From the NCBI GenBank assembly GCA_010093995.1, contig ML992508.1, forward strand, positions 654,506-718,505: DNA of 64,000 nt, read 5' to 3'. The notes beneath the pieces were generated by a model. It did not search any database. It was given only the letters and a program-made list of their open reading frames with translations, and was not told the DNA's origin. The position numbers and the translations under genes are program-made. The number at the start of each line of letters is the position of its first letter. Position 1 is the first letter of the stretch. This DNA is from Elsinoe ampelina. Lineage: Eukaryota. This document shows positions 17,439 to 28,099 of the stretch, one piece after another.

Positions 17439-17645
17439 CGCGCTGACAGCAGCAGATCACTGCGTATGCGTTTATGCTGTAATTAGTGTTACCGATTTTC
17501 CGACATGGTGAATTCGGACTGGAAGTTTTAAAGGCACCACCATTGACATGGTGCGGTGAAGAAAGTCGTTCCTCAAAAGCTTCAGTTTCGCCGCCCGAGA
17601 TTCGGACGAAGCTTCAACACATTCGAATCTTACTTGGAACATATA

Positions 17646-17826
17646 CAGTCGTTTTGAGTTCAACCGAGCCACCCCGGGCTTGGCGGTACTCTTCACCGAC
17701 TTCTGCTTACCAAAATTGGCTGGCTAGAGGTCTAGAGAGAATATAGAGTTAGAGAGAATATAGAGTCGAATAGCTTAATAACGCTATCTATTTAAATGAA
17801 ATTAAAGCTAAAAAAAGGTATAATAG
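17646..17826 (+). repeat. Left TIR plus subterminal inverted repeats of the Tc1/mariner element
   Basis: 40-bp perfect TIR, a patchy inverted match to about 17743, a 17-bp tandem duplication TAGAGAGAATATAGAGT (17733-17766), and a 28-bp block AAATTAAAGCTAAAAAAAGGTATAATAG (17799-17826) that is inverted at 27965-27992. Confidence 0.9.
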
Positions 17827-18249
17827 ACTAGTTAGTATATACTAACGTTACTAAATTATAGCTCGTAAGTGTCCTTCTTCTATAACTAACTATCGCTCTA
17901 GCCGTATAAAGAAACCTTTAAGGGCAGTATAGAAGGCAATTATAATATTCTTTACTTCTCTATTATTGCTACTAGTCTCTTCTTCTTTAAGGCACTCCTT
18001 AAGCTTGTTAGAGAAGGTACTAGATAACCTTCGTCGTAGTCTAACTATCTAGCTAAAGAGCTATATACTAGCGCTAGCGTAGGTAGCACCTTATCTAGAG
18101 GTTATATCTACTAACCTAGCTCTTTAGAGGCTTATAGAGTAAGCTATAAACTAAGTTATACTACCTTTATAAGCTAGATCTTAGTAGCTATCTCTTCGAT
18201 TAAGGTTTCTAATACCTGTACTAGACTAGCTAAGGTAGTTAATTAAGTT

Positions 18250-19600
18250 AGATATAGTACTAGAGGAAGAGCTAGATATATAGGTAATAGAGGTGCTATA
18301 GTTATTATAAGTGCTAGAGTTACTAGAGACCGATCCTAGCAACTTAGATACGCTCTATCTTAGTCGAATAGTAGAGGTAAGGCTAGTAGTAAAGCTTAGA
18401 AGTAAGACTCTATACTATAATAAGTATATATTTAGCTAGCTAAGTAATCTATTATAGTTAGTACTAGCTAATTAGGTAGTAGAGAAGAGTAGTCTTATTA
18501 CTTAAGCTATACTCGAGCTACTTTTACTTAATTATACTACTACCTATAAGCGTCTTAGTATATAGTAGCTATTTAGAGTAGCAATATTAGAGCTAGCTAA
18601 GATATAGAGGCTAGTTAATAAGCTTAAAGATTAGCTTACTAAGGATTACTAGTAGCTTAGGCTCGGCCTTACTACTAAGATAAAGAAGGTACTAATAGCT
18701 ATAAACTCTATAGTAAATTTAAGAGTTATATAACTACCTTTAACTATACTAGTTCTAAGCTCTTTAATAGGTCTACTACTACTACCTTTATAGTAATTCT
18801 CCCTTAGATCGACGCTAGTAAGAATAGTATAGACTCTAGTAGCTAGTATAACACTACTATCTTCGTAGGTAGTATAGCTAGCGCTACTATTATAAGGTTA
18901 AGGCTTAGCGACGAGCTAATTACATAGTACGCTCGAGGGCGTAAATAGTAATAAGAAGCCTCTATTAGAGTTAGTATAGACTTGTACTAATCGTAATTAC
19001 TATAACTATAAGAGGTTATACTAGCGTATATTAACTAGTAAGCACTACCGGATTATAACGGAGAATAAGTATATCTAGGCTACTACTATTTACAATAGTA
19101 AAGCTACTATTAATCGTTCTCCTATAGGCTTTATATTAAGCCTTAATTGCTTAAAGGCCTCGAGGAGTGTTAAAAGTGCTCTACTAACACTATCGATACT
19201 AATGCCTTTAGCGTCTTTAGCGCCTTTTATACTCTCTCTAACACCTATTAACTATATTAATATTATAAACTTAATTGCTCCTTACTAGCTATAGTAGCGC
19301 TTAGGGCCTATAAATAACTTAAGATCCTTACCTATTACCTCTAAGGCCGACCCTTATAAAGTTTTAACTAAATTCTTTAAGTAGATAAAGAGAAAGAGAA
19401 GCTTTAAAAGGGATATTTAGGTGCTAGATTAGGTTAAATTTAAGCTAAGGAAGGAGAATTATAACCTTAACAGCGTAAGAGGTATATACTTAGATAGGTA
19501 GAGGGATACCTAGGCCTTTAATAAAGGCCTTCTATACTAGATTTAAAGCTAAATTAGCTCTTTTAAGCGCTAGTATTACTCTAAGATAGTTACACGAGCT
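18250..19600 (+). pseudogene. RIP-inactivated second ORF of the DNA transposon (W-x-C-x4-C-x-N-x4-CW-x6-H Cys/His-motif protein); ends approximate
   Basis: One + frame reads coherently once TAG/TAA/TAT/TAC are back-mutated. At 18977-19123 it reads *TCTNRNYYNYKRLY*RILTSKHYRIITENKYI*ATTIYNSKATINRSP, consistent with WTCTDRDCHNHKGSCW...HY...W..AI..G.AT.DRPP. Pro/Ser-rich linkers flank it, then RSSP...FF.W. Confidence 0.6.
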
Positions 19601-19968
19601 AGATCGAATTAAGCGAGTTAGATACCTTACTATCTCGGCGGTTAAAATAGGCACTTTTACCTAGTTTATAGTAGCTAATATAGATACTAATTTACGTAGC
19701 GTAATAGATAATTTAACTAGCTTAGCGGCTAAGATAGATGTTAATCTAGTTCGGCTGCCGAACTAGACTTAGTTTATCTAACTTAGAGTAGTACACGTAT
19801 AGTATAAAGTAGTTATAGTAGTAGTAAAGAGTTTTTACTAGGTTTTAGTATTAAACTTATTTAACATAAGTAATTTCTTATATACTAAATAGATCCCCTA
19901 TAACCTTATACTATATCTATAGCTCTTAAAGTGCGCCTTAGTATATAGTCTACTATATAAGTAGATAG

Positions 19969-20431
19969 TATTACGAACTAGTAGGATAGCTAAAGCGTAG
20001 GGACGTTAGGACTAATTAAACTACTAAGGTTATTACGTAACCTAGCTCGATATTTACCTAGTTCTCTATCTTCTCTAGCGGCTCTACCTTAGGGACTATA
20101 GAGTATATAGGTTACTAGCGGACGTATACTCTATATTGTTCCTAACTCTCGCTACGGAGCGTATAGAGTATATAGAGTACATAGGGAAGAATATATATAT
20201 ATAGAAGTAGTCCTTACCTTATATAAGTATAGTAGTTAACCTTGTCTAGATAGTAAACACTAGTATTACTAAGGCTAGCCCTTGTAATACTATCTAATTA
20301 TACTTTATTATCTATAAGATATATCTTCTCTAACTCTTACCTTAGTACTATACTACTATAGAAGTAGAACTACCTCGTTCTTAGCTTAGCTTAGACTACT
20401 AGTGTAGGCTATATTTAGACAGTTCGTAACA
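19969..20431 (+). repeat. 5' LTR
   Basis: TATTACGAACTA...CAGTTCGTAACA (RIP-altered TG...CA inverted ends), TATA-rich tract at 20191-20203. Direct repeat of 26530-26992. Confidence 0.92.
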
Positions 20432-20547
20432 TTTTAACTACTCTTACTATAGTATAGCACGCTACGAGGTTAATAAGTAACTCTTGCTCTAAGTTACTAT
20501 TAGTATCTTCGATTACTAGCAAGCTAGAAAAGCTTACTATTAACGAC

Positions 20548-22539
20548 ATGTCTACTACTAGTTTAACCTCGGGCGAATATAGAAGGTCTTTTAGTATAGA
20601 AGAACGAAGTAAGCCTAAGTTAGAAGTAGAACTCTTCTACGAGGACCGCGCCTACTTAAGGCGCTTTCTTGTTTAACTTAAAGCCTTCTTTGCTCTAGAG
20701 GGAGATAAGTACGCTAATGACGTAGTAAAGGTCCTCTATACCGGGATACACCTTAAAGGCGCCGCCTTCGGGTAGTTTAAGCCCTATATAAGTAGCTACC
20801 TAGACGGATAACTAAGCCTAGATATAAAGGCTATCTTTAAGAGCTTTAATATCTTTTAGGCAAAGATTAAACAAGTCTTTAACGTATCTAATAAGGAGCG
20901 TATCGCTGCGACGAAGATTTAACAACTATAACAACGTAGGTCTATAGCCTAGTACTATTTCTAGTTTTAACAACTCGTAATATACCTAGACTAGAATAAT
21001 AGTACTAAATATTTAGTATTCTACTAAGGACTAAGCGACTTAGTCAAAGACTAAATAATACTCGAGCTACCTAATAGCCTCTAAGAACTAGTAGATACTA
21101 CAATTGCTATTAATAATTAACTTTATAAACAATATATAGAACGTCGCGGAGGATATAAGGTAAATACTAGATATACACGTTTCTCTCGAAACTATAGAGA
21201 CTCTATAGAACTTAATACTATACGCGAAGGCTACCTCTTATAGATATAAGGCTATAGCTATAGAGGAAAGTTCCTTAGTAGAAAAGAGAGAGAGAAGTAT
21301 AGATAAGACAACCTATGTTTTAAGTATAAAAGACTTAAGTATTAGGCTAGAGACTACTAGCAAGGGGCGCTAGCTAATAGATTACATATAATAGTTACTA
21401 GGCTAGTAGAAAAAAAGGCCGACACTACTATAGAAGACCTAACGACCTTTAGCGTAGGCAAGGAAATATAGAAGGAGTCTATAATAACTTAAGAGATAGT
21501 AGAATCCTCTCCGGATGTTACGCTTAATATCTCTATAACTAATAGCAAACGATAAAGCTAATACGTAACGCTATTATAGATAGTATATTATAATAACTCT
21601 TATTATATTTACTTATTAGACAAGTAGGGATCTAGTTAGTTCCTATATAAGCTATCTAAGCGTAGGCAACTAACGAAATAGCTAGACTAGGAACCCGACC
21701 TAGAAGAGCTTCTTATAATTAGTAGTAATAGTAACTAACCTTAGAAGGTAGTTAGCGATAATTACTAATATACAATTATCGAGATAAAGTATTAGAACGT
21801 AAGTGCTATACAATAATATAGTAGCCTTACCTTTAGCTCTTACGGCGCACTATAAGGAAAGGTATATTATATATCGCTCTAGAAATGTACAAATCTAAAT
21901 TATAAATAGTACTATACTATCTACTTATACGACGTACTTAGAGAAGACACCGTTAGTCTCGAATACACTACGGACTTCTTAGTAATCGAAATAGGTAGTA
22001 CTATCCCCTATAGCTAAGTAAGAGAATATACTTAGTGTAGCCTTACTAACTATAACTATACTAGAGACAGTAGCAAAGAAGAGAAATATAATAAAGAATA
22101 CACCGAGTAACTATAATATAATAACATAGATAAGGACTTATCTAATAATAATAACAATAATAATAACGTACTACTACTAGGTAAACAACTTAAAGTATAC
22201 CTTATAGAGATATAGAGGAATTATATAATAATATACACCTACTACTAGAATAGGATATAACAAGACAAATCTACGTAACTTGTTTTTGTCTTTAATACTA
22301 ATACCTAGCTACACCCGGAAGGAATAGTTATACTAATACGAGTGTATAACACTACTTAGTGTAACTAGTAGAGAATTATTAGACTTTATAGTCACTAAGG
22401 GACTTAGGCGCTAGAAGTTTACCTTACTATATTAAGTAGCGACAAGACACGACTTGCCTAATAGATATAGTACTAATAGTAAATACGTGTAGGAAGAGAT
22501 TAGCTACTTATCTAAGGAGCTATAATAACAAAAAACTAG
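20548..22539 (+). pseudogene. Gag ORF relic (about 663 codons) with CCHC knuckle and long C-terminal extension
   Basis: ATG 20548. Capsid-like FYEDRAYLRRFL...KVLY...LKGAAFG*F. Knuckle NLCFKYKRLKY*ARDY (CX2CX4HX4C after back-mutation) at about 21310-21357. Ends ACA AAA AAC TAG at 22528-22539. Confidence 0.8.
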
Positions 22540-25500
22540 CTAGTTATTGCCTAATAAGGTAAGACGATAATACTAGCTAAAGCCTTAGTATAATAAAGAT
22601 CTATACGTTAAACTACTTTATACTAGAAGTTAAGATATAAGAGAGTAAGGTAAGAGTAATAATAGATTCGGGAGCTAACTATAGCTACGTCTCTATAATA
22701 GTTGCTAATTAGCTTAAACCTTATTAACACTAGAAGGAGTTACCTTACCTACTTACTATAGCGAATAGAACCCCTATAGGGAAGAATAGGAAAGTTACTT
22801 AGGAACTATAAAACGTTATAATTAAAATCGAAATATATATAGAAAAACAATCGATCGATATAGTAGACATATAGTATAATATAGTACTTAGTATAGACTA
22901 GCTTTAATAATACAATCTAGACGTAGACTAGATTAAAGAAACACTTGAATTCCCTAAGTACAATTATAAGACGTAGGAAGTATAATTAGCTCTATAGATA
23001 CTAACTATAAGGATAGTATAGGTATAACTAATAGTTAGAGCTATCGCTAGCGTAAGTAACTAAGTACTTCCGCTAGAATATAAAGACTTCGAGGACTTAT
23101 TTAAAGAAAGGAAAGGCATTGCGGCCTTACTCTAATATAAACTATAGAATTACAAAATACTCTTTAAAGAGAGTAAATCCCCGACATACTATTAAGGTCT
23201 TATACTACTATCGAAACAAGAGGAGAATATCCTTAAGAACTATATCGACAAGTACTTACTTAAAGGATTTATACAACTATTAAAATTACCTATTGCGTAC
23301 GGAGTGCTTTTTACACCTAAAAAGGATAGAACGTTACAAATATATATTAATTACTAGAAACTTAATACACTTACTAGGAAGAATCGCTATCCTCTACTAA
23401 GGATTAATAAACTTTAAGACCGACTACTTAGAGCTAAATAGTTCACCGTAATTAACATTAGGGACGCCTATTATTAAGTATAAATAAAGGAGAGTAAGAA
23501 GTAAAAGATAGCTTTTAGGACGTAATAGAGCCTATATAAGTACCTCGTTATGCTCTTTAGGCTAACTAACGCTCCTATAACCTTCTAAGAGTTAATTAAT
23601 AACACTCTATAAGAACACCTTAATAACTTTATCTTAGTATATTTAGATAATATTATTATCTTCTTAAAGACGTATAATAAATATATAGGACATGTTTATA
23701 AAGTGCTATAGAAACTAAAAGAGAAAGACCTACTAGTAAAACTCTCTAAGTATAAGTTCTATAAGTATAAGATATAATTTCTAGACTATGTTATATCTAC
23801 TAATAGTATCGGACCTAATCTAAAGAAGATTAAGTTAGTAAATAACTAGCCGGAACCTATAATAGTTAAGGAGGTTTAAGCGCTACTAGAGTTCTTTAAC
23901 TACTACTATAAGTTCGTTAAAGGATTCTCTAAGGTAGCTACGCTAATATCTAACCTTATAAAGAAAAAAACTAGATTTGTCTTTAATAAGAAATATAGGT
24001 AGGCCTTTAAGAAGCTAAAGCTTAGACTTATAATAGCACCTATCCTAGTACTCTTTAACCTAAACTAATAAGCACTACTAGAAATAGATACCTTAGACTT
24101 TACGATAGAAGCGTATCTAGCGTAGAAGAATATAAAAGAATAACGCTACCTAATTATATACTACTTACGAAAAATAACCGGACCTAAACTTAACTATAAT
24201 ATATATAATAAGGAGTTACTTATAATTATAGAGGCATTCCGCGAATAGAGAGTATACCTAGAAGGAATAACCTTACCTATATAAGTCTACACCGACTATA
24301 AGAACCTATTATATTAGACAATAACTAAGGTTCTTAATAGATAATAAGTGTAATAGTTAGAAACACTTATAAGCTATAACTTTTAGATCTACTATATTAA
24401 GGAATTAGAGAATAGTAGAGTAGACGCTCTTAGCCGATAACTAAATTACTTAAAGAACATAATAATAATAGAGGCCTCTATACTAAAGTAGTAAGACAGC
24501 GCTCTAGTCTATAAGCACCCGAAGGTAAAGTAGTTATATAGCCTTACCTAGGAGCTTACGTAAGAATAGAAGAAAGAAGTTATTTAAATACACTATAATA
24601 ACCTAATAGTAGGACATAGTAGAATCGATAAGACTATTAAACTTATTATATAAAACTACCTATAGAAAGGACTCCGAAACGATATTAAGACATATATTAC
24701 TATATACGATATATACTATAAGTCTAAGCACTTACGACATAAGCTATATAGCCTATTATAACCTTTACTACCACTAGATAAACTATAGTAATCAGTTATA
24801 ATAGACTTTATAGGACCTTTACTACTATTAGAAGAACCTCTTATAGGTGTAAAGTATAATAGCATTCTAGTTCTAGTAGATAGGTTTACGAAGTATTACT
24901 ACTTTATACTATATAAGACAATAGTAACTACTAAGGATATAGCCTTTACCTTCCTCCGAATAATTGTTTTATAACACGGAGTACTACGAGACCTAATAAC
25001 TAATAGAGATAAGCTATTTACGTTACAATTCTAGTAATTATTTATAGATCTACTAGGAGTTAAATATAAGCTATTAACTTCCTTTTATCTATAAACGAAT
25101 AGACAAACTAAACGGGCAAATTAAGTACTAGAGTAGTACCTACGATGCTATCTAAATTATAAGTAAGACTTATAGGTAATACTATTACTACTCGTAGAGC
25201 TCGCTATTAATAATAGAAAGTTAGTAAATAGAATTTCACTATTCTATATAAACTATAGAATATACCTAGATCTATACTACGACACACTCGGAATTAAGCT
25301 AATATCTAAGGACGCTAATATACTAGTAGCTAATATTAAGAAACTATATAACTAGCTATATTACGATATAGTATTTATATTATAAAGAATAGTAGAGTTT
25401 ACTAACTAGAAGAGAATTATAGGACTAATTCTATAGGAGGGAGAGAAAGTTTACCTCCTTAGTAGAAATATTAAAATAAAATAACTAAGTAAGAAACTTA

Positions 25501-25910
25501 ACTACACTAAACTAGAACTCTTTAAGATCCTAGAAAAGAAAAACAAGAACGTATATAAACTAGAACTACTAAGACATATAAGGATCTATCTAGTCTTTTA
25601 TATATTACTACTAGAGAAAGTACTATAGAACGCTATACCTAGACCTATCGAACTAGATAAAGAAACATAGGAGCTATAGTATAAGATCGAAAGGATTTTA
25701 CATTATAAATCTATAAGGGAAAAACGTTACTATCTTATCTACTAGAAAGGACATTAGTATAGTAAGGCAATATAGGAACTAGAAGAATACTTTACCTCGT
25801 AAGTAATCCTAGACTACTAGATTAAGAACCTATCCTAAGCGAACTAACTAGATAGACCTAGCACTTCTAATACTAAACAAAAACGAGAATGCCTAAGGAA
25901 GATCGCTTAG
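22530..25910 (+). pseudogene. Pol relic: aspartic protease, RT, RNase H, integrase, chromodomain
   Basis: All in one frame, -1 to gag: IDSGA at 22662-22676; RT ...NYxKLNTLTRKNRYPL, VMLFRLTNAP, YLDN (YLDD) at 23640; RNase H LEIDTLDF (ETDASD) near 24080; integrase H-x6-H and SFYL*TNRQTKRAN; chromodomain YKIERIL...YLIY*KG...AI*ELEE at 25680-25795. Confidence 0.92.
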
Positions 25911-26455
25911 CTAATAGAAGTACCTTAATCGTTACTAAATAGAGAACTCTAGTTAGAGTTAAGCATAAATAATTACTAGTCCTATAGTAGAATAGGATCC
26001 ACCGACGATAGTATTTCCTCCTACTCTAGGACTCGAATACGAGTCTCCTCTAGAGAGATTACTTTCTCTACCTTGTCCTTTAACTTTTATATCTCTTTAC
26101 GTAGGCAAAGCTTATTACCTATAGCTCTTTAATAAGCCTCTTTTGCCTTTTTATAAGCTTCTTTAGCTTCCTTTCTAGTAGCCTTAGCCGTAACTAATTC
26201 CTTTCGTAAATAAATATACTTAGACTAGAGACACTACTATTTTAATTTTATTACCTAAATATTATAACTTAAGTAGTTACTTACGATATACTAGCTATAA
26301 ATACCTAACCGAACGTAGACTTTATAGTCTAGCCCTTTTAACTTACAACGAGAGTAAGCTTATAGTATGTTAGTTCTAAACAATTTAATAAACTCTAAGA
26401 GGTTCTTTCGTATAGATATACTAGATTTACTATACCTTCGACAACTAGGAGACAT
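25910..26455 (-). pseudogene. Antisense ORF3 relic within the Gypsy element: Zn2Cys6-spaced Cys cluster plus coiled coil; 3' end approximate
   Basis: From ATG 26455: ...AYSRCKLKGLDYKVYVRLGIYS*YIVSNYLSYNI..., then heptad-like LRKELVTAKATRKEAKEAYKKAKEAY*RAI...LRKEI*KLKDKVEKVISLEE. Five Tyr codons (TAT/TAC) back-mutate to Cys, giving C-x2-C-x6-C-x8-C-x2-C-x7-C. Confidence 0.65.
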
Positions 26456-26529
26456 ATTTAGTATATAGCGCGTAAGAATAAGAAAGGATACTTACTTATT
26501 AGGACAACTTAATTAAGGGAGGAGAGTAA

Positions 26530-26992
26530 TATTATAAACTAGTAGGATAGCTAAAGCGTAGAGACGTTAGGACTAATTAAACTACTAAGGTTATTACGTG
26601 ACCTAGCCCGACGTTTACCTAGTTCTCTATCTTCTCTAGTAGCTCTACCCTAGGGACTATAGAGTATATAGGTTACTAGTAGACGTGTACTCTATATTGC
26701 CTCTAACTCTCGCTACGGAGTATATAGAGTATATAGAGTACGTAGGGAAGAACATATATATATAGAAGTAGTTCTTACCTTATATAAGTATAGTAGTTAA
26801 CCTTGTCTAGATAGTAAACACTAGTATTACTAAGGCTAGCCCTTATAATACTATTTAATTGTACTTTATTATCTATAAGATATATCTTCTCTAACTCTTA
26901 CCTTAGTACTATACTACTATAGAAGTAGAACTACCTCGTTCTTAGCTTAGCTTAGACTACTAGCGTAGGCTATGTTTAGATAGTTCGTAATA
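26530..26992 (+). repeat. 3' LTR
   Basis: Same length as the 5' LTR. The differences seen are C/T and G/A transitions. Preceded by the PPT and followed by the TSD GATAG. Confidence 0.92.
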
Positions 26993-27950
26993 GATAGCTA
27001 GCTCTAAGAAATTAGCGTATTTCTCGTACCTAGCGACTAGATTATAGTATTACTTTACTTACGCCTTTAGCACTAAGAAGAATTACTCGATAGAATTAAA
27101 ATCTAGCGAATAGAGTAGTAGGTATTTAAAGTAACTTCTATGCTCTTATACTAGCTCCTTTACCTTATCGCTCCGGTAGATTAAAGTATTATCTATAACG
27201 AAGATTATACTAGCTAGAAGCTCTAGTATTATTATATCTATTAGCTAGCTAATAAAGATCTTACTAGTAATTAATCTATAGTAGATTAAGGTACTAGAGA
27301 GATAGCTATTAATAGTAATAGCTAGTAATACGCTCTACCTCTTACTACGCTACTTTAGCTAGATATCTATATACTTCTTACTAATAGGCGCCTACCTATA
27401 TCTCCTCTATACTATATACTTATTATAAGCTAACTTATTAATGTAAATAATTCTATTAACTAGCTAAAGCATATACCTTCGAGTCTAATTTGCCCTAAGT
27501 ATTATATCTCTTTTAGCCGCTACCTTCTTAGCTACCTTTTAAGACTACTACTAGCGCTAGATTATATACTAGATTATACTTAAGTATATCTAGTAATTAT
27601 ATATCTCTCTTAAGAAGGCTTAAACTTTATTAAGATAAGTAGTAGAGATGTCGTTTAGGTAGGCTATTACCTCCTTAGATAGGTTAGTATAGAAAGAGCT
27701 TAGCTATAAAGGACTTATATCTTCTAAGAAAGGAGTAAGAGTATAAGGGTGTAGTATATAAGCTTTAATAGAAGAATAAGAAGTACTAAAGAACTCGAGG
27801 AATAGTCGAATTTAGTAGATTATAGCTCTAGCTACCTTAGTAGTAGTATAAATAGCATAATCGGTATACTCTTTAGTAAGTAAGAACTATACATCTACTA
27901 GTTTTAATTTAGCTATCCAATAATTAACTATAACAGTAATAACCTAATTA
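26993..27950 (-). pseudogene. Tc1/IS630-like DD34E transposase relic (C-terminal tail displaced to 19898-19963)
   Basis: Minus frame: IYIN(D)KLAYN...RRYR*AP (first D about 27438), IFVIDNTLIYRS (D at 27191-93) and YLLLYSLDFNSIE (LPPYSPDFNPIE, E at 27086-88), with exactly 34 codons between the second D and E. N-terminal HTH-like segment and a probable mutated intron near 27680-27720. Confidence 0.88.
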
Positions 27951-27964
27951 GAGTAGTATAGCGA

Positions 27965-28099
27965 CTATTATACCTTTTTTTAGCTTTAATTTATTAGTAT
28001 TCTCTATAGACTTCTAGCTAGCCAAATTTGATAACGAGAGGTCGACGCGGAGTACAACACGCCAAGCCCGGGGTGGCTCGGTTGAACTCAAAACGACTG
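27965..28099 (-). repeat. Right TIR plus subterminal inverted repeat
   Basis: Reverse complement of the left-end blocks, with the perfect 40-mer at 28060-28099. Confidence 0.9.

Follow-up and report, generated by a model that had tools for sequence, protein, structure and literature searches.

The window, the 64,000-nucleotide stretch of Elsinoe ampelina DNA that was analysed, contains a RIP-degraded Ty3/Gypsy chromovirus spanning positions 19966-26992. The 5' LTR (19966..20431, forward strand) forms a 93% direct repeat with 26527-26826, and alignments stretch the two copies to approximately 20431 and 26992, which places the 3' LTR at 26527..26992 on the same strand; the 5' LTR begins with TA(G) and ends with CA. 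A gag region with many stops (20548..22599, forward strand) was recognised by Pfam Retrotrans_gag when stops were read as X (E 3e-5; score 24.6 bits, cut-off 24.1), and is followed by pol (22602..25900, forward strand, the end being approximate), which likewise carries many stops and is laid out as PR-RT-RNase H-IN-SH3. Its Pfam matches are RT_RNaseH_2 (1.4e-15), RT_RNaseH (6.3e-13), RVT_1 (6.3e-12), SH3_Tf2-1 (4.6e-7) and Integrase_H2C2 (8.3e-5). The polypurine tract (PPT), AAGGGAGGAGAG, was read from the sequence at 26515-26526 (forward strand), where it adjoins the 3' LTR. A chromodomain gave no Pfam match in the window pol, where a remnant could be discerned by eye only, whereas relatives do have one in their pol; the assignment to the Ty3/Gypsy chromoviruses is based on the LTR pair, the PPT, gag and the order of pol in the window and, for the chromodomain, on the relatives. 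No target-site duplication was seen at the element's ends (flanks GTAGA vs GATAG), and an AT-rich block runs past both LTRs; on these two grounds the region appears to have been rearranged.

Between the end of pol (~25900) and the PPT, the minus strand holds an ATG-started frame, as the earlier note had reported. It was read from the ATG at 26455 to 25970, with 59 nt separating the ATG from the PPT, and is not an open ORF, since its 162 codons include 12 in-frame stops; the ORF list has nothing of at least 50 aa in this frame. Codons 34, 37, 44, 53, 56 and 64 are Y, C, Y, Y, Y and Y, respectively, so that the segment from codon 34 to codon 64 (26264..26356, minus strand) reads Y-x2-C-x6-Y-x8-Y-x2-Y-x7-Y. 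Each of the five Tyr codons is one G>A away from Cys, and reading them as Cys results in the spacing C-x2-C-x6-C-x8-C-x2-C-x7-C, in agreement with the reversion that the note had proposed. By itself, this spacing is weak evidence and lies within chance for such DNA: with Cys or Tyr allowed, the AT-rich block (17500-28000), in which 8.8% of the six-frame codons are Tyr, matched the pattern 6 times, at 4 distinct places. A chance product of Tyr-rich, RIP-mutated DNA that was never a gene would also fit the 12 stops, as well as the outcome of a Pfam search and a word-based protein search with the window frame, which gave a chance-level match only and no match, respectively. It is homology that settles the gene.

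When the read-through window frame, with stops written as X, was used as a phmmer query against a database of 1.84 billion representatives, 8 matches were obtained at E <= 1e-3, the best at 9.7e-12, covering window codons 7-148. The matches are small proteins of 175-211 aa, and in the intact ones each of the six places is a Cys and a long helix comes after them; one of the eight, P0008, is itself a Tyr-for-Cys copy. The window is identical to the family at 21 of 41 columns that are at least 80% conserved, and at a further 18 its codon is one C>T or G>A transition off, while 2 columns differ otherwise. Random codons from the same frame gave a mean of 2.4 identical and 3.6 RIP-type columns, and the observed 39 was reached in 0 of 2000 draws. 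Together with the recurrent locus arrangement in relatives (48 of 60 loci, see below), the phmmer homology and the conserved columns refute a chance origin, to which we assign next to no probability. The phmmer matches and the family alignment identify a RIP-inactivated antisense accessory gene at 25970..26455 (minus strand), in which codons ~68-150 (26006..26254, minus strand) align with the long helix of the family and codon 47 encodes Tyr where the family has His. The frame is very probably what remains of a genuine accessory gene belonging to a Zn2Cys6-like family; the window copy itself is dead and cannot be functional.

The family comprises 73 proteins according to a profile search with 7 sequences, and at least 163 database members according to a search with a domain profile; when longer proteins were sought among the best 120 of these 163 matches, all 120 proved to be 143-280 aa. 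In the ESM Atlas, only unnamed Ascomycota clusters were found, with no shared Pfam family. In 48 of 60 metagenome loci, tblastn placed the gene antisense, just past the end of the integrase/chromodomain: the end of pol is on the opposite strand, convergent with the antisense gene, at a distance of -28 to +277 nt from where the ORF match ends, and all 21 neighbouring ORFs tested were chromovirus pol by Pfam. Nearly all of the 60 loci have their ATG within 2-130 nt of a polypyrimidine tract, the exceptions being four broken copies in which the tract is farther away and three loci in which none was found. An intact ATG-to-stop ORF of 150-230 aa is present in 36 of the 60 loci, and the bare spacing CX2CX6CX5-12CX2CX6-8C is carried by 52 of the loci and by 65 of 75 aligned members. 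Less-mutated copies thus show what the earlier note had expected of a genuine element gene, namely Cys rather than Tyr or His at these positions, an open frame and linkage to LTR elements. The family gene evolves under purifying selection, with a median NG86 dN/dS of 0.11 over 16 pairs, 15 of which fall below 0.5.

The same loci bear on the idea that a piece of a host zinc-cluster gene was captured by, or is nested in, this copy only. The AT-rich block past both LTRs and the missing target-site duplication would be in keeping with such an event; however, the gene sits inside the LTR pair, 59 nt from the PPT, and the arrangement recurs across the loci even though pol outside the group of one intact relative, L019, is only 36-61% identical to L019 pol. 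The best 120 domain-profile matches are, moreover, all of the small size given above. Single-copy host capture is refuted for the family by the recurrent arrangement, and we regard it as highly improbable; the gene may still have been acquired from a host factor long ago, when the lineage arose. True Zn2Cys6-domain genes were found neither in the window nor in the 60 loci. The gene is real, element-encoded and Zn2Cys6-like.

The family protein, of approximately 175-215 aa, opens with a conserved N-terminal helix, SST-RR--L--FI--FG. The second of its four parts is a module with six cysteines (C-x2-C-x6-C-[KR]VHVRSG-x-C-x2-C-x6-8-C), the third a helix of about 70 residues, and the last an acidic-aromatic motif at the C-terminus (LALSP-TW---DG--D-FW). 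The gap between Cys3 and Cys4 is constant at 8, whereas that between Cys5 and Cys6 is 6 in 39 members, 7 in 17 and 8 in 9. Gal4-type clusters contact DNA via basic residues between Cys2 and Cys3, and in the family R or K occurs there at +1 in 39 and at +2 in 50 of 65 members, and R at +5 in 42 of 65. To our knowledge, neither the conserved N-terminal helix nor the KVHVRSG loop has a counterpart in Gal4-type factors, and the VHVRSG motif was not found in the literature searched. A stricter PROSITE-type pattern, setting residues before Cys1 and after Cys2, fits 6 of the 75 members. Three members bear the UniRef label 'Zn(2)-C6 fungal-type domain-containing', which we assume to derive from a PROSITE profile rule.

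Two AlphaFold models (mean pLDDT 87.1 and 88.2) contain two short helices, each starting at a CxxC (residues 34-39 and 53-58 in P0007), and the long helix occupies residues 68-136 in the model of a relative, with pLDDT mostly above 90. The long helix announced in the earlier note is present in the prediction, and its heptad signal is modest. In a Foldseek search against 350,542 PDB chains, Zn2Cys6 DNA-binding domains made up all 18 rows listed, to rank 22, and 17 of 19 listed rows when the domain model was used; the E-values were 0.23 or worse and none was significant. Superposition on Zn2Cys6 domains gave an rmsd of 1.7-2.5 A over 33-36 residues, with VIA-align Z scores of 2.0-3.0. Compared without bias against 48,161 chains, the domain model, which is too small for such a search, reached a best Z of 3.0, with bHLH scoring level with Zn2Cys6. 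Among PDB sequences, the domain profile matched the LAC9 cluster best (E 0.074), with the six Cys in register. Pfam Zn_clus (PF00172) stayed below its gathering cut-off of 21 bits, at 9.7-12.1 bits (E 0.22-1.3) in 3 of 8 relatives, gave no match to the window frame, and was the commonest weak Pfam match among the 75 members (24 at E <= 1, best E 0.0071). The fungal binuclear zinc cluster claimed in the earlier note is therefore upheld for the bare spacing, while the Pfam model stays under threshold, and no link to Zn2Cys6 reaches the standard significance threshold in the Pfam, Foldseek, structural or PDB profile searches. A homodimer prediction with two copies of residues 8-140 and four zinc ions scored 0.06 against a mark of 0.32, with the alignment unused, and was uninformative. 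The six-cysteine module is predicted to fold like a Gal4-type Zn2Cys6 binuclear cluster.

Transcription of the gene is supported for L019, of which the stretch is present in 22 metatranscriptome runs. In 4 of 4 runs examined, the contigs skip 1311-1372, a segment of 62 nt that, read on the ORF strand, has the marks of a canonical intron (GTATGT, branch site CTGAC, AG). The intron begins 18 nt past the stop codon, and the spliced antisense RNA has a 3' UTR that reaches into the end of pol. These data are assembled contigs of one element, from runs that may share one campaign, and the antisense strand of the RNA was deduced from the splice signals, since the contigs give no strand, start or level. 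Of 31 distinct loci, 15 have intron-like signals on the ORF strand, and 1 has them on the reverse complement. For one relative, then, the contigs show the antisense RNA in spliced form. In the window, a degenerate short intron of 54 nt may, speculatively, lie at 25949..26002 (minus strand), the sole match on that strand to a RIP-relaxed intron pattern (GTGGAT...CTAAC..AG). In one run, X2, a contig of 1,673 nt over part of the LTR, the ORF and the spliced 3' part had a depth of 41.7, and the other contigs listed on the element in that run had depths of 2.7-6.5; contig depth cannot rank the parts of an element.

Where transcription begins can be approached from the position of the ATG. As the ATG is only tens of bases from the PPT, transcription of the antisense gene would start inside the 3' LTR, and for the window gene, with its gap of 59 nt, the start site must have been in the 3' LTR or beyond. 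Antisense expression from the LTR side, as the earlier note had suggested, is supported in one relative by the spliced antisense RNA, the start inside the LTR being deduced from this distance. The protein would bind two zinc ions via its six Cys, pair through the long helix and bind DNA, and could regulate transcription of the LTR or of host promoters. Such a regulator would be a functional analogue of HBZ, the antisense bZIP factor of HTLV-1.

Our preferred reading, with a probability of roughly three in four, is that the window holds the remnant, inactivated by RIP, of a true third gene carried by an ascomycete chromovirus lineage and coding for a Zn2Cys6-like protein. The interpretation in the earlier note is, overall, supported, with the function as regulator or silencing antagonist being what we infer. 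That the family protein is specifically a DNA-binding transcription regulator is a tentative assignment, to which we give somewhat less than even odds. More doubtful still is the full scenario, in which a widespread ascomycete chromovirus lineage encodes a minimal Gal4-like factor, expressed as a spliced antisense mRNA from the 3' LTR, that would bind sites in the LTRs or in host promoters to tune the element's own transcription or blunt host silencing, as a fungal counterpart of HTLV-1 HBZ.

A different possibility is that the element does make this accessory protein, but for a purpose other than regulating transcription, so that its zinc module and long helix would serve retrotransposition directly, for instance in RNA/cDNA binding, in host bridging via the C-terminal motif or in countering host silencing. 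The sub-threshold level of every Zn2Cys6 link would agree with this, as would the N-terminal helix and the KVHVRSG loop, which lack a known Gal4-type counterpart. So would the target sites: a count of CGG pairs over 250-500 nt of upstream sequence from 27 distinct loci gave CGG-N1-CCG as the best of 48 motif types, present in 5 of the 27 loci (z 3.8), and no shared CGG-pair motif stood out near the LTR side. As this result is unconvincing, no target site can be proposed. Since the 3' UTR of the spliced RNA overlaps the end of pol, action by RNA pairing is conceivable as well. On the other hand, the fold matches almost only DNA-binding Zn2Cys6 domains, the basic residues stand between Cys2 and Cys3 where Gal4-type clusters are known to contact DNA, and cluster, helix and acidic-aromatic tail follow one another as they would in a minimal activator. 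A direct role in retrotransposition, whichever of these forms it took, is considered unlikely.

The common view of fungal LTR retrotransposons is one of gag-pol machines whose transcription relies on host factors. If the family does encode its own DNA-binding regulator, this view changes, and the regulator would explain how elements are switched on under particular conditions. LTRs are dispersed genome-wide, so the factor could, if the full scenario above is true, pull nearby host genes into an element-controlled regulon. A DNA-binding regulator would also offer a handle on fungal antisense LTR promoters and a parallel to the accessory regulators of retroviruses that is easy to work with experimentally. 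Hundreds of 'hypothetical proteins', along with some mis-named ones, in fungal genomes and metatranscriptomes could be re-annotated as a retrotransposon accessory gene, and RIP-degraded copies of the antisense gene can then be recognised.

Among host proteins, the closest comparison is with the Gal4-type factors, as Gal4, Lac9, Ppr1, Put3, Leu3, Hap1, Pho7 and AlcR are the top structural and sequence neighbours of the family in the PDB. Shared features are CX2CX6CX8CX2CX6-8C, the two helices started by CxxC, which in the family are predicted ones, the basic residues between Cys2 and Cys3 and the helix after the cluster. Unlike these factors, the family protein is only ~190 aa long, is without any Pfam family at cut-off, has a conserved helix ahead of the cluster and is encoded on a mobile element, not at a host locus; its Cys3-Cys4 loop, an invariant KVHVRSG, also contains His and lacks Pro, which is not known to be the case in classical clusters. 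HBZ of HTLV-1 is expressed from the 3' LTR, including in a spliced form, and its functions have been shown experimentally. By analogy, the family protein resembles HBZ in being a small protein like a dimer-type DNA-binding factor, whose gene occupies the minus strand near the 3' end of a retroelement, would be reached by antisense transcription from the side of the 3' LTR and is represented by a spliced RNA; the two differ in having a zinc cluster and a bZIP, respectively, in the kingdom of their hosts and in lacking homology, and the functions of the family are inferred ones.

The statement in the earlier note that Ty3/Gypsy elements encode only gag and pol overlooks brtn, a published antisense gene of Boty-like retrotransposons in Botrytis cinerea and Sclerotinia (PMC8365987, PMC7264820, PMC4227169, PMC5987419), for which PMC8365987 and PMC7264820 cite Zhao et al. 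2011 (Virology 417:248). In the sections of these papers that describe it, brtn is an extra gene of a fungal chromodomain Ty3/Gypsy element, located between pol and the 3' LTR and antisense to gag-pol, and a zinc cluster in BRTN is not mentioned. The family gene answers to the same description of an antisense additional ORF, lying on the opposite strand between the end of pol and the PPT/3' LTR, open and conserved across related elements, and transcribed in one of them; the two genes may correspond, a likeness of position and description only. No BRTN-named or Botrytis-labelled protein appeared among the 73 profile matches or the best 120 of the 163, where most rows are nameless. Should BRTN belong to this family, the gene would already be known, and only the fold assignment and the wide spread would be new. 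Literature searches combining zinc cluster, retrotransposon and antisense found no work that ties Zn2Cys6, LTR retrotransposons and antisense together, and by their titles and abstracts the papers retrieved concern unrelated topics. Antisense ORFs between pol and the 3' LTR are also described for the plant Ty3/Gypsy elements RIRE2, Grande, Retand and PvRetro13 (PMC7264820). Compared by description, these belong to non-chromovirus lineages, have a function given as unknown and come with no mention of a zinc-cluster domain in the relevant sections of that paper, and they share with the family gene the position, the orientation and the within-family conservation.

The AT-rich island at 17,500–28,000 (GC 0.29–0.36, compared to 0.51–0.66 in the rest of the sequence) is a signature of repeat-induced point mutation (RIP) in an ascomycete, and contains a single LTR retrotransposon, a Ty3/Gypsy chromovirus. 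Its LTR direct repeats (19966–20431 and 26527–26992) are approximately 93% identical and enclose a gag region from 20548 (Retrotrans_gag, E 3e-5) and a pol frame at 22602–25900, which, translated with stops as X for the domain search, matched reverse transcriptase (RT), RNase H, the integrase zinc domain and a Tf2-type SH3 domain. A polypurine tract (PPT; AAGGGAGGAGAG, 26515–26526) abuts the 3' LTR. No target-site duplication was seen at this element, the flanks being GTAGA and GATAG. The RIP-type AT-rich block runs past the LTRs by about 2.5 kb (17500–19965) and 1 kb (26993–28000), and older repeat remnants or a rearrangement are likely around the element.

Between pol and the PPT, an earlier note had described a minus-strand frame with Zn(II)2Cys6 spacing, in which RIP had replaced Cys by Tyr, followed by a coiled coil. 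The frame was recovered, with the ATG at 26455, and the spacing is exactly as claimed, with Y, C, Y, Y, Y and Y at codons 34, 37, 44, 53, 56 and 64. Read to 25970, the frame spans 162 codons and, with 12 in-frame stops, is not an open ORF. The six-place spacing taken alone is weak evidence for a gene; with Tyr counted as Cys, the AT-rich block, in which 8.8% of all six-frame codons are Tyr, yields six matches to the pattern, at four separate places.

A phmmer search of 1.84 billion representative proteins, queried with the read-through frame, returned eight proteins of 175–211 aa at E ≤ 1e-3 (best 9.7e-12, over codons 7–148). The intact matches carry Cys at all six places, followed by a long helical stretch and a common C-terminal motif, while one of the eight, P0008, is also a Tyr-for-Cys copy. 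At 41 family columns with conservation of at least 80%, the window frame shares the family residue in 21. In a further 18, its codon differs from one for that residue by a single C>T or G>A step, and in two it encodes something else. All five Tyr-for-Cys changes, each a single transition off as the note had supposed, are among the 18, as is a Tyr for an invariant His. Random codons of the frame gave on average 2.4 identical and 3.6 one-step columns, and 39 was reached in none of 2000 draws. With 39 of the 41 columns identical or one RIP-type step away, the window copy therefore belongs to a real protein family; it is a dead relic, killed by RIP. A 54-nt intron-like stretch, matching a RIP-relaxed pattern (GTGGAT...CTAAC..AG), lies at 25949–26002 on the minus strand and starts in frame at codon 152, beyond which the family C-terminal motif is unrecognisable. 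The coding sequence may in this lineage be split by an intron, or it may have lost its 3' part.

A profile of seven intact members retrieved 73 proteins; a second one, restricted to the 78-residue domain and run on longer proteins, retrieved 163, the best 120 of which are all 143–280 aa long. Nearly all members are unnamed or 'hypothetical', though three are labelled 'Zn(2)-C6 fungal-type domain-containing' in UniRef. NCBI members come from Lithohypha, Hortaea, Sporormia, Aureobasidium and Elsinoe, and the ESM Atlas held only unnamed Ascomycota clusters (52–646 members).

The resemblance of the family to Zn2Cys6 domains lies in the six-Cys spacing and was also assessed structurally. Two independent AlphaFold models of relatives (pLDDT 87.1 and 88.2) predict two short helices, each started by CxxC, and then a helix of about 70 residues. 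Among the Foldseek matches listed (350,542 chains searched), almost all were Zn2Cys6 DNA-binding domains (Leu3, Pho7, Hap1, Gal4, Put3, Ppr1, Lac9 and AlcR), at E 0.23 or worse, and superposition of the predicted model gave an rmsd of 1.7–2.5 Å over 33–36 residues with Z of 2–3. Lac9 was also the best match of the domain profile among PDB sequences, with six Cys in register and a non-significant E of 0.074. Zn_clus was the commonest weak Pfam match in an alignment of 75 members (24/75), and in three of eight relatives it scored 9.7–12.1 bits against a cut-off of 21. Neither Pfam, Foldseek nor superposition Z gave a significant match to Zn2Cys6, the unbiased structural search did not separate these domains from bHLH proteins, and a stricter cluster pattern fitted only 6/75 members. 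The family also has features of its own, an invariant KVHVRSG loop and a helix preceding the cluster. We therefore call it Zn2Cys6-like and do not file it under Zn_clus. It is probably a divergent branch of the Zn2Cys6 superfamily. Other weak Pfam matches, all on or near the Cys module, were DUF5651 (13/75), FpoO (12/75) and DUF3716 (11/75, best E 8.4e-5).

A scan of metagenome contigs yielded 60 family loci, 36 of which hold an ATG-to-stop ORF of 150–230 aa, so that the frame is open in less-mutated copies. The linkage to LTR elements is also borne out: on the opposite strand, 48/60 loci have the C-terminal end of a chromovirus pol, at -28 to +277 nt from where the ORF match ends, and all 21 neighbouring long ORFs tested matched RT, RNase H, integrase, SH3 and/or chromodomain. 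Among the other 12, downstream DNA is at most 207 nt in eight and 428 nt in L059, the pol match runs into the end of the ORF at L035, and L024 and L025 represent one derivative lacking pol, with a gag fragment after the ORF. The intact small ORF, the missing pol and the adjacent gag fragment mark the latter as an element that lost pol but retained the accessory gene. Its ORF (L024:5087–5614, L025:9977–10504) is identical to P0009, found on an NCBI record, and sits in a 2-kb GC-normal island amid AT-rich stretches, the gag fragment lying downstream on the opposite strand. Four loci (L010, L015, L019 and L027) have terminal overlaps of 127–174 nt and periods of 6.5–7.3 kb. We read them as whole elements that were assembled into seeming circles, as would be expected if the LTRs collapsed during assembly or if circular forms exist. 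Median dN/dS was 0.11 over 16 non-independent pairs (dS 0.1–1.5), with 15/16 below 0.5. Pol and ORF matches share no more than 28 nt, a small overlap, and selection on pol therefore does not explain the low values. Five copies (L037, L038, L046, L048 and L056; GC 0.33–0.43) show RIP-like degradation; as in the window copy, their small ORF contains stops or lacks Cys residues.

In nearly all loci, the closest polypyrimidine tract (the PPT complement) is 2–130 nt away from the ATG, and in the window 59 nt separate ATG and PPT; the distance is greater in four broken copies, and three loci yielded no tract. We infer that the promoter of the antisense gene could not fit outside the LTR. Positions 1–1500 of the intact element L019 were present in 22 leaf-litter metatranscriptome runs, possibly from one campaign. 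In all four runs compared with L019, a contig skipped 1311–1372, a 62-nt stretch (GTATGT...GCTGAC-N7-AG, plus strand, that of the small ORF) beginning 18 nt past the stop codon, which by its signals reads as a textbook canonical fungal intron. It lies within the coding tail of pol on the opposite strand, and its splice signals are usable by an antisense transcript only. The contigs carrying the joint run into the LTR, covering 480 nt or more upstream of the ATG. These RNA data are assembled contigs without strand, start or level from one element, the strand being read from the splice signals. Intron-like signals from -60 to +200 nt of the stop were found on the small-ORF strand in 15/31 distinct intact loci, against 1/31 for the reverse complement.

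The results show a conserved, selected, antisense and spliced accessory gene of a chromovirus lineage, and the interpretation first offered is supported in its testable parts. Antisense transcription out of the 3' LTR would produce a protein whose zinc-bound module would bind DNA, whose chains would pair via the long helix and whose acidic-aromatic tail could recruit partners. Basic residues are located between Cys2 and Cys3 of the module; a count of CGG pairs upstream of the gene in 27 distinct loci supported no target site. The net outcome, at a probability of roughly 0.45, would be that the protein regulates its element's LTR or host promoters; a function outside transcription, either within the retrotransposition cycle or against silencing, appears rather unlikely. 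In function, the closest counterpart would be HBZ of HTLV-1.

Antisense extra ORFs of LTR elements are an already known kind, to which the present gene adds a predicted Zn2Cys6-like fold, a wide ascomycete spread and a spliced transcript. According to citing papers (PMC8365987, PMC7264820, PMC4227169, PMC5987419), brtn, published in 2011, is an antisense gene of Boty-like chromoviruses in Botrytis and Sclerotinia that occupies the same site; the likeness seen is one of position and orientation. Antisense ORFs at this place also occur in plant elements, as described in PMC7264820. In the literature searched, nothing linked a zinc cluster with a retrotransposon-encoded antisense gene. Among the 73 profile matches and the best 120 of the 163, nearly all unnamed, none was named BRTN or labelled Botrytis. 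Five members (P0041, P0062, P0064, P0138 and P0178) bear automatic JGI names ('galactokinase', 'multidrug efflux pump subunit AcrA', 'chromosome segregation ATPase' and 'septal ring factor EnvC') that seem to be annotation errors, with the long helix as their probable cause.
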